DNA from: Escherichia coli
Lineage (GTDB): Bacteria > Pseudomonadota > Gammaproteobacteria > Enterobacterales > Enterobacteriaceae
Length of the DNA stretch: 64,000 bases
Assembly (NCBI RefSeq): GCF_013122565.1
Contig: NZ_CP053258.1
Direction: 5' to 3' (one strand)
Under the pieces are notes generated by a model. It was not told the DNA's origin, ran no database searches, and was given only the letters and a program-made list of their open reading frames with translations. Every line of letters starts with the position of its first letter. Positions within the stretch are counted from its first letter, which is position 1. Both the position numbers and the translations under genes were made by a program. Positions 21,385 to 22,302 of this stretch are shown piece after piece.

Positions 21385-22302
21385 GAATCTTGACCTTTTT
21401 TGCTGTTATCGCCACTCCCTGCCGTGGAAGTCAGCTTAGAACAATGTACTCCCCCAGGACGGTGTTTTGAAGGTCTGCAGAATAAGATTTTGCCAGAGGG
21501 GAAAGCTCGATTGTGCTGTTAATAACTTAATAATGGTAAAATAATGAGGTGTATATGCTTAATAAGTAATGTTATATAGTGAATTATTCTGATTGTTAAT
21601 TGTAAATGTGGTTTTTTTATCTGTAAGATAATTGTGTGAAAATGCCTCGTTTAAGAATTCACTACTGAATCGCGATGATGATATTTCCGCATTACGGAGA
21701 GTTTAACAGCGTGATGATTTCCGAGGTGTCGCAATGGGTTAAGGTGTGAAACTATTGTTAAGCGGAATTAATGAATGAGGATGATGCTAATTAATTATTA
21801 TTTAATATTCAAAAAGGTTTTGTTGTGCTTATTAATAATAGAAGATTACTTTGCCTAACATAACATAACTTTGCATCAGATAATTCGCAATGACCCTTAT
21901 AAATAAAAGGTTTTTGGGGTAAAATGCTCGGATAAATGACGGATCCCTGCTCTTGATGCCGCCTCACCATTGCTGTTTGTACGTGTTCGCGTATGACCAG
22001 CGATGCTGCACGAGAGTGGAACAAGGACTTACATTTACATTTATACAAACACGCGCATGTCATAAATAGAAAAGAGTGAGTAACTTAATAGATATGCGAT
22101 CCCTGAAGATATATTCTGTGGTCTACTTCAGGCATTATAACGGAACAATGTGAGTCGCTTTTTTAGTGCAACTCATATGCATTTTTACTTTCGTCCGGGT
22201 TCCGGATGAAACTGCCAGGGAGGCACATTACAAATGGAATTGCTTGTTTGTGTGTGCACAGCATTAACCAGCTCAGTATGAGCCGCCAGTAAGTGATAAT
22301 AT
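21385..22302. promoter_or_regulatory. Long AT-rich divergent regulatory region between alaA and lrhA
   Basis: 918 bp without a convincing ORF; visibly AT-rich with TTAAT-type repeats. Confidence 0.5.

Follow-up and report, generated by a model that had tools for sequence, protein, structure and literature searches.

The divergent genes alaA and lrhA of Escherichia coli are separated by a gap of 918 bp, which we analysed within a stretch of 64,000 nucleotides (the window; contig NZ_CP053258.1 of assembly GCF_013122565.1) that contains both genes. We consider it about 90% probable that this gap, at positions 21385..22302, is the shared control region of alaA and lrhA and holds no gene of its own. 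It would consist of the lrhA promoter, a 371-nucleotide (nt) lrhA leader that serves for the docking of small RNAs (sRNAs), an AT-rich core that binds proteins, and the promoter and leader of alaA (Table 1). The region is one that is already known and has been studied as the alaA–lrhA divergent regulatory region, and the convergence of signals on it has been documented before. Published experiments have established the length of the leader, its pairing with UhpU, its repression by ArcZ and RprA, and the binding of Hfq, while the analysis described here established the conserved architecture of the region and the conserved blocks within it.

On the minus strand, the open reading frame (ORF) of alaA spans 20167..21384, and that of lrhA, on the plus strand, spans 22303..23241. 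The encoded AlaA is 100% identical to the K-12 protein and LrhA 99.4%, and the K-12 record carries zero annotated features between the two genes. The original prediction, made from the window alone, had described the gap as 918 bp long, AT-rich, rich in TTAAT/ATTAA repeats and devoid of a credible ORF. Its coordinates proved exact, and the GC content of the gap was 37.8% as against 51.5% for the window. Composition was uneven, with 48% GC in 21385-21499, 31% in 21500-21931 and 43% in 21932-22302. TTAAT or ATTAA occurred 13 times where dinucleotide-preserving shuffles gave an expectation of 6.0 ± 2.6, an approximately 2-fold excess that was reached in 13 of 1000 shuffles. Eleven of the 13 copies lay in the 31%-GC core, where 4.3 ± 2.4 were expected and none of 100 shuffles reached 11. 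The further proposal that the gap represents a regulated lrhA leader held in part: such a leader, 371 nt long and targeted by UhpU, ArcZ, RprA and Hfq, does exist, but it accounts for only 40% of the gap (371 of 918 bp) and is its less AT-rich part, the most AT-rich part lying upstream of the transcription start.

The evidence that carries this reading begins with published work on lrhA regulation. The length of the lrhA leader has been reported as 371 nt (Melamed et al., 2023, eLife), and the fusion primer SM079 used in that study begins ATAAATGACGGATCCCTGCT, which is an exact match to the window from 21932 onward. We therefore placed the start of the leader at 21932. Since the segment 21500-21931 lies upstream of this mapped start, it is shared promoter-upstream DNA and not leader. 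In the same work, UhpU repressed an lrhA-lacZ fusion unless a single base of UhpU was mutated, and repression was regained when lrhA carried the compensating change (Melamed et al., 2023). From the published oligonucleotide and gBlock sequences, we located the lrhA-M1 mutation as a C to G change at 22287, inside CGCCAGU, and the UhpU-M1 mutation as the complementary G to C change in ACUGGUG. ArcZ and RprA likewise repressed lrhA-lacZ; McaS gave the most chimeras with lrhA in RIL-seq, yet had no effect on the fusion (Melamed et al., 2023). Co-immunoprecipitation with Hfq recovered an RNA called 'ig-lrhA-alaA', which northern blots resolved into a 150-nt and a 350-nt band; both were interpreted as pieces of the lrhA leader, and lrhA mRNA accumulated in the absence of Hfq (Bilusic et al., 2014). 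In addition, lrhA was enriched 744-fold in an RprA pull-down, and over-expression of RprA lowered the level of lrhA mRNA. Compared to the lrhA 5' untranslated region (UTR) of E. coli K-12, the locus analysed here shows no essential difference; the sequence of the start-site primer and the core for pairing with UhpU are the same in both. A 2018 study by Lalaouna et al. is said to be among those that treat the lrhA 5' UTR as a target of several sRNAs.

We then asked which parts of the gap are conserved. A scan for LrhA in one genome per species provided the 80 closest loci, all of them from Enterobacteriaceae, the family to which the alignment is confined. Divergent alaA was present upstream of the regulator in 78 of the 80 loci, and the gap measured 764-1140 bp, mostly 905-1013 bp. 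Alignment of 79 gaps using MAFFT gave a background identity of ~35%, and five conserved blocks were seen: the alaA promoter/leader, 21745-21807, the lrhA core promoter, the proximal leader and the alaA hairpin. The block at 21385-21475, which holds the hairpin, was ~75% identical in genera other than Escherichia compared to ~35% for neighbouring DNA; in the same genera, mean identity was 62% at 21745-21807 and 35-41% on either side. Identity reached 66% at 21876-21931 and 67% at 22216-22302. The distance from the alaA-side anchor to the lrhA promoter was 415 ± 16 bp, and the lrhA leader ranged from 333 to 584 nt in the 79 species (mean 406). Although the sequence of the AT-rich core was poorly conserved (~35-41% identity), its AT-richness, motif enrichment and length were kept: GC content of the core was 33.8 ± 2.9% over the species, and TTAAT/ATTAA occurred on average 8.3 times where 3.7 were expected, with an excess of more than 2 standard deviations in 42 of the 79. 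Thus the architecture and composition of the region are conserved even where the sequence is not, in that gap size, promoter spacing, leader length, AT-richness and motif enrichment persist over ~35% identity. The original prediction had proposed that sub-segments be examined for conservation, and conserved elements were found beyond the two core promoters.

The low GC content of the core, ~30% compared to ~51% in the flanks, together with its poor sequence conservation (~35%), would also be expected of a functionless remnant of horizontally acquired or mobile DNA. Against such a remnant, the core keeps its position, its length between anchors and its AT-richness across 79 sequences from many genera, and it contains the conserved block at 21745-21807. 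Of 5426 complete E. coli genomes, 5425 carried the gap, always on the chromosome and never on a plasmid; its identity was 97.6% to K-12 and 98.2%, over the full length, to the best match among the 5426 complete RefSeq E. coli genomes. The window thus belongs to a slightly divergent lineage with no close representative in that set, possibly Shigella or one of the rarer lineages of Escherichia. Moreover, insertions in this region alter expression of the regulator: intergenic transposon insertions cause over-expression of lrhA in E. coli, and in Serratia they do so for the homologue pigU (Smith et al., 2023, NAR, for Serratia). A remnant therefore seems barely credible to us, and we read the core as promoter-upstream DNA with a regulatory role.

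Within this DNA, the lrhA core promoter reads CTTATAAA-N16-TAAAAT in the window, and TAAGAT replaces the -10 hexamer in most genera. The lrhA promoter has been reported to be bound by CpxR and by Lrp, and LrhA binds its own promoter, at a site described in the literature as 'not well defined'. From its conserved sequence, the ATTAA-N7-TTAAT dyad in the block at 21745-21807 is a candidate operator for LrhA or Lrp. It contains the T-N11-A looked for upstream of an autoregulated, divergently transcribed LysR-type gene; it sits at -142 to -126 and not near -65, and AT-rich dyads of this kind are common in DNA of 31% GC. The block as a whole may serve LrhA, Lrp or a different factor. There may also be a second lrhA promoter, farther upstream, near 21575-21600. 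Differential RNA sequencing (dRNA-seq) of S. Typhimurium lists the lrhA leader as 712 nt, and the corresponding start maps, via S. enterica subsp. arizonae, to ~21590-21600, just downstream of TATAGT. No E. coli evidence was found for this distal start.

In the leader, the 87 nt at 22206-22292 were 100% identical in the window, K-12, a divergent Escherichia genome labelled E. coli (L002) and E. albertii. Identity of the whole gap to the last two was only 76-84% (76% for E. albertii), and we therefore ascribe the identity of this segment to constraint at the nucleotide level and not to coding constraint. The leader has the properties of an Hfq-dependent, sRNA-regulated leader, in that a transcribed start has been mapped in the literature and complementarity to sRNA seeds is present. 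Its folding was moderately more stable than that of shuffled sequences (z -2.2). Single hairpins were predicted at two places. At 22189-22211, the presence of a hairpin was variable among genera (mean z -1.15), while a hairpin just 5' of the ribosome-binding site was seen in most genera with differing sequences (78% with z < -1).

Duplexes with sRNAs were predicted in 22-nt windows slid along the leader; these replaced whole-molecule RNAduplex runs, which had given meaningless hybrids with giant loops. UhpU was predicted to pair with CGCCAGU at -15.9 to -19.6 kcal/mol. The ArcZ seed UUUCCCUGG was matched to CCAGGGAGG at 22215-23 with -17.7 kcal/mol. At 22252-63, McaS UGCUGUGUGUAC would form 12 contiguous pairs (-15.5 kcal/mol) and RprA a longer, interrupted duplex (-14.0 kcal/mol), the stretch of McaS and RprA engaged in this pairing being UGCUGUGUGUA. 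In the CACAGC motif at the centre of this site, A and G were invariant and the other positions were at least 90% conserved. We infer the exact ArcZ, RprA and McaS sites from these duplexes.

Leaders bound by CsrA at two GGA sites are known, flhDC and glgC being examples, and the lrhA leader likewise has a pair of A(N)GGA motifs, spaced by ~17 nt (~10-63 nt is required) and conserved across genera. GGA was kept in 53 of 65 sequences within 22215-22223. The second motif belongs to the near-invariant element AAAnGGAAUUGCUU at 22232-45, in which GGA was found in 63 and A(N)GGA in 62 of the 65 sequences. Unlike the flhDC and glgC sites, the lrhA motifs lie outside the ribosome-binding site, 65-85 nt upstream of the AUG, and neither is presented in a conserved hairpin loop; folding of individual species gave no conserved local hairpin around the second GGA (mean z +0.3). 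Judged by these motifs, the pair could be a dual CsrA site and is a candidate for one. CsrA has been reported to up-regulate rovM, the Yersinia homologue of lrhA, and our literature search found no report of direct CsrA binding to the lrhA leader.

The same part of the leader contains a 15-codon ORF at 22234-22281, and lrhA translation might be controlled by its translation as an upstream ORF (uORF). A GGAGG at 22219-23 lies 10 nt upstream of its AUG at 22234 and is overlapped by the predicted ArcZ site. The AUG was kept in 27 of 65 sequences, and in five Citrobacter and Salmonella loci a uORF that starts at the conserved AUGGAAUUG runs into the lrhA start codon, its stop overlapping this codon as AUGA, which is how translationally coupled genes are typically arranged. 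In Escherichia, the frame stops 21 nt earlier than this overlap. Against translation of a functional uORF, the AUG was missing in the other 38 sequences despite the near-invariant surrounding GGAAUUGCUU, and the peptide varied from 4 to more than 30 residues, with no conservation beyond MEL. Small ORFs in the gap were also conserved no further than the DNA of the block in which they lie, and no paper came up when full texts were searched for lrhA in connection with small proteins and ribosome profiling. We regard control by a uORF as highly unlikely, and favour the docking of sRNAs as the role of the proximal leader.

Several observations weigh against the control region as we have drawn it. 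The ArcZ, RprA and McaS sites are duplex predictions, and sites in the distal leader scored as well or better; because of these similar scores, only the UhpU site is secure among the sRNA sites in the leader. RNAalifold predicted zero pairs on the alignment of the proximal leader, with no register-consistent consensus, after which the proximal leader was folded species by species. A scan of the gap for the CpxR box GTAAA-N5-GTAAA returned only a match with 2 mismatches and no meaningful enrichment, and thus gave no convincing position in the gap for the reported protein sites. A 712-nt leader of the Salmonella type, if present here, would make part of the AT-rich core transcribed. At the other end of the gap, the alaA start near 21437 is predicted and not mapped, and a literature search for a mapped start found nothing.

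The original prediction had also allowed for an unannotated sRNA or small protein in the gap, and neither was supported by our searches. An Rfam scan of 20900-22800, with E values up to 10, gave only chance-level matches to eukaryotic snoRNA and miRNA families and one to STnc170, whose 14 bits fell far short of its threshold of 80; the best match inside the gap scored 18 bits against a threshold of 50. A riboswitch or other curated cis-regulatory RNA was likewise not indicated in the gap, as there was no Rfam match and no multi-helix consensus, and only single hairpins recurred. The promoter/terminator scan found no terminator-like site in 21385-22302 and 2 promoter-like sites, where shuffles gave 3.0 ± 1.8. 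Among 62 small ORFs of at least 10 codons, none persisted in over half of the 75 genera compared, and the ORFs with partial matches in other genera lay within blocks conserved as DNA. The largest ORF of the gap (84 amino acids, 21809..22063, minus strand) was rejected, as stops interrupt it in L002 and E. albertii and 75 other genera lack any counterpart of it; the earlier statement that the gap lacks a credible ORF was thus borne out.

The RNA recovered with Hfq, with its two bands, and the presence of one sigma-70-like site per strand could still be taken to indicate an independent sRNA gene with its own promoter and terminator. The paper that reported the bands nevertheless ascribes them to fragments of the lrhA 5' leader. 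The gap has neither an Rfam match above chance nor a terminator, its promoter-like sites do not exceed those of shuffles, and beyond the promoters and the proximal leader, the sole conserved block is AT-rich DNA with no conserved hairpin. An independent sRNA gene is therefore extremely unlikely, and the only sRNAs reported from the gap are Hfq-bound pieces of the lrhA leader.

On the alaA side, the predicted promoter hexamers TTCAAA and TACATT were near-invariant over the aligned Enterobacteriaceae, with a promoter score of 8/12 that is slightly below the threshold of the promoter scan. The RNA that would start here would open with a conserved hairpin. In an alignment of 66 sequences, its loop and the two C-G pairs closing the loop were invariant, and the stem was recovered as the core stem by RNAalifold, with an exchange of A-U to G-C in 12 sequences and of U.G to U-A in 25. 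The stem was paired in 81% of alignment cells, compared to at most 57% when the partners were slid, and changes on both sides of the stem were seen in 28 cells as against 11.6 in shuffles. The U.G pairs fit an RNA of alaA sense and not one of the opposite strand. The stability of the hairpin in the single sequence was unremarkable (z +0.6), and it matched no Rfam family. Two further copies of the motif in the window, with 2-3 mismatches, lie inside coding regions and were judged to be due to chance.

Table 1. Elements of the alaA–lrhA intergenic region, in window coordinates.
Feature	Position	Strand	Basis or remark
Predicted alaA 5' leader, ~52 nt, from a start near 21437/21436 to the ATG at 21384	21385..21437	-	Conserved hexamers
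Conserved hairpin at predicted 5' end of alaA mRNA: stem ACUUCC/GGGAGU, loop ACGGCA (21425-21420)	21414..21431	-	
Predicted alaA core promoter: -35 TTCAAA (21471-21466), 17-bp spacer, -10 TACATT (21448-21443)	21443..21471	-	Sequence reading
AT-rich core between the two promoters, 31% GC	21500..21931	.	Composition; 11/13 TTAAT/ATTAA
TATAGT, which may be the -10 of a distal lrhA promoter	21575..21580	+	Weakly conserved; lead only
Block conserved upstream of lrhA, spanning -187 to -125 relative to its transcription start	21745..21807	.	TGTGAAnnnATTGTTAAG, TTAAT, dyad ATTAA-N7-TTAAT
Dyad ATTAA-N7-TTAAT	21790-21806	.	Contains T-N11-A at 21792/21804; conserved
lrhA core promoter: CTTATAAA (21896-21903) and -10 TAAAAT (21920-21925)	21896..21925	+	Conservation; -10 ends 6 nt upstream of the published start
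lrhA 5' untranslated leader, 371 nt	21932..22302	+	Published length and SM079 primer
Leader hairpin UUUCGUCCGG-GUU-CCGGAUGAAA	22189..22211	+	-13.2 kcal/mol, z -3.4 in the window
CCAGGGAGG, predicted ArcZ pairing site, includes first GGA (22219-22221)	22215..22223	+	
Near-invariant motif AAAUGGAAUUGCUU, second GGA at 22236-22238	22232..22245	+	Putative CsrA or sRNA site
GUGUGCACAGCA, predicted RprA/McaS pairing site around CACAGC (22257-22262)	22252..22263	+	Duplex prediction
Hairpin GCUCA-GUA-UGAGC, adjoining the ribosome-binding site upstream	22271..22283	+	Folding
CGCCAGU, validated UhpU pairing core (-19 to -13)	22284..22290	+	Published compensatory mutations
Ribosome-binding region AAGUGA (22291-22296; core AGUGA, 22292-96, near-invariant) and lrhA AUG (22303-22305)	22291..22305	+	

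Variation of the gap within the species was seen in the E. coli collection, where 5453 matching places were present in 5425 records. Insertions or deletions inside the gap are suggested for some strains, because 42 genomes had no single place spanning at least 80% of it. In E. coli SCPM-O-B-12142 (NZ_CP144928.1, 3501-5900), the gap is reduced to its first 166-167 bp, beside alaA. Next to this remnant come IS1, fragments of elaD, ISKpn26, rbn and elaA, the remaining gap is missing from the genome, and lrhA is lost or displaced through an event mediated by insertion sequences. Downstream of lrhA in the window, the next gap (23242-23870) is 629 bp long with 32-41% GC in 200-bp windows, and extends to an ORF starting at 23871 which, from its position in K-12, we take to be nuoA.

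In the mechanism that is best supported, the AT-rich upstream DNA would recruit LrhA, Lrp, CpxR and probably nucleoid proteins, and thereby set the level of transcription from 21932. The long leader would render lrhA mRNA unstable and poorly translated when Hfq is present, with the last ~90 nt acting as a docking platform for Hfq-dependent sRNAs. UhpU would pair at 22284-90 beside the ribosome-binding site, as supported by the published compensatory mutations, while RprA and McaS are predicted to pair around CACAGC at 22257-62 and ArcZ at CCAGGGAGG. Pairing would lower both LrhA synthesis and mRNA stability, and so relieve the repression of flhDC. These sRNAs would relay envelope stress (RprA), oxygen (ArcZ), and flagellar or hexose-phosphate status (UhpU), by which LrhA, as repressor of the flagellar master operon flhDC, may be tied to stress and to metabolic signals. 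On the opposite strand, alaA would be expressed from the conserved promoter at 21443-71 with a ~52-nt leader that opens with the conserved hairpin.

Long 5' UTRs that integrate several Hfq-dependent sRNAs are also found in rpoS and flhDC. The lrhA leader resembles these in being a leader of several hundred nt, belonging to a global regulator, on which ArcZ and RprA act with dependence on Hfq. It differs from rpoS in that ArcZ and RprA repress lrhA but activate rpoS, and from both the rpoS and flhDC leaders in having no C-rich, G-poor stretch of the type used for Rho loading (C/G of at most 1.21 in 60-nt windows); a Rho-dependent attenuator in the leader was rejected on this composition. By description, Serratia sp. 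ATCC 39006 has the same layout at alaA-pigU, with divergent alaA and LysR-type regulator and a long gap (Smith et al., 2023, NAR), as do the regions upstream of rovM, hexA and pecT, and insertions in the alaA-pigU gap raise regulator expression as they do with lrhA.

Besides repressing flhDC, LrhA acts on RpoS, on fimbriae and on genes for virulence, and its Serratia homologue PigU also represses CRISPR-Cas. The unusually long control region of lrhA is a convergence point of many signals, which has been documented already and so does not constitute new biology. What is added here is a map of the published elements in window coordinates, the conservation of the architecture across Enterobacteriaceae, and a few testable leads. 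Three of these leads were absent from the literature searched, namely the GGA pair, the ATTAA-N7-TTAAT dyad and the alaA hairpin; they are minor, and each could be a control element, as candidates that we draw from sequence conservation. Elements invariant across the family do exist beyond the regulators found in the literature, and we hold it possible, if rather doubtful, that at least one of them is an undescribed control point. If the GGA pair were a direct CsrA site, it would provide a mechanism for the reported dependence of rovM on CsrA and would add a CsrA-LrhA-FlhDC loop. The dyad, together with the enrichment of TTAAT/ATTAA, could represent the still undefined operator array of LrhA (or Lrp), and the ACGGCA hairpin of alaA may be a recognition element for a protein or an sRNA that controls synthesis of the alanine transaminase.

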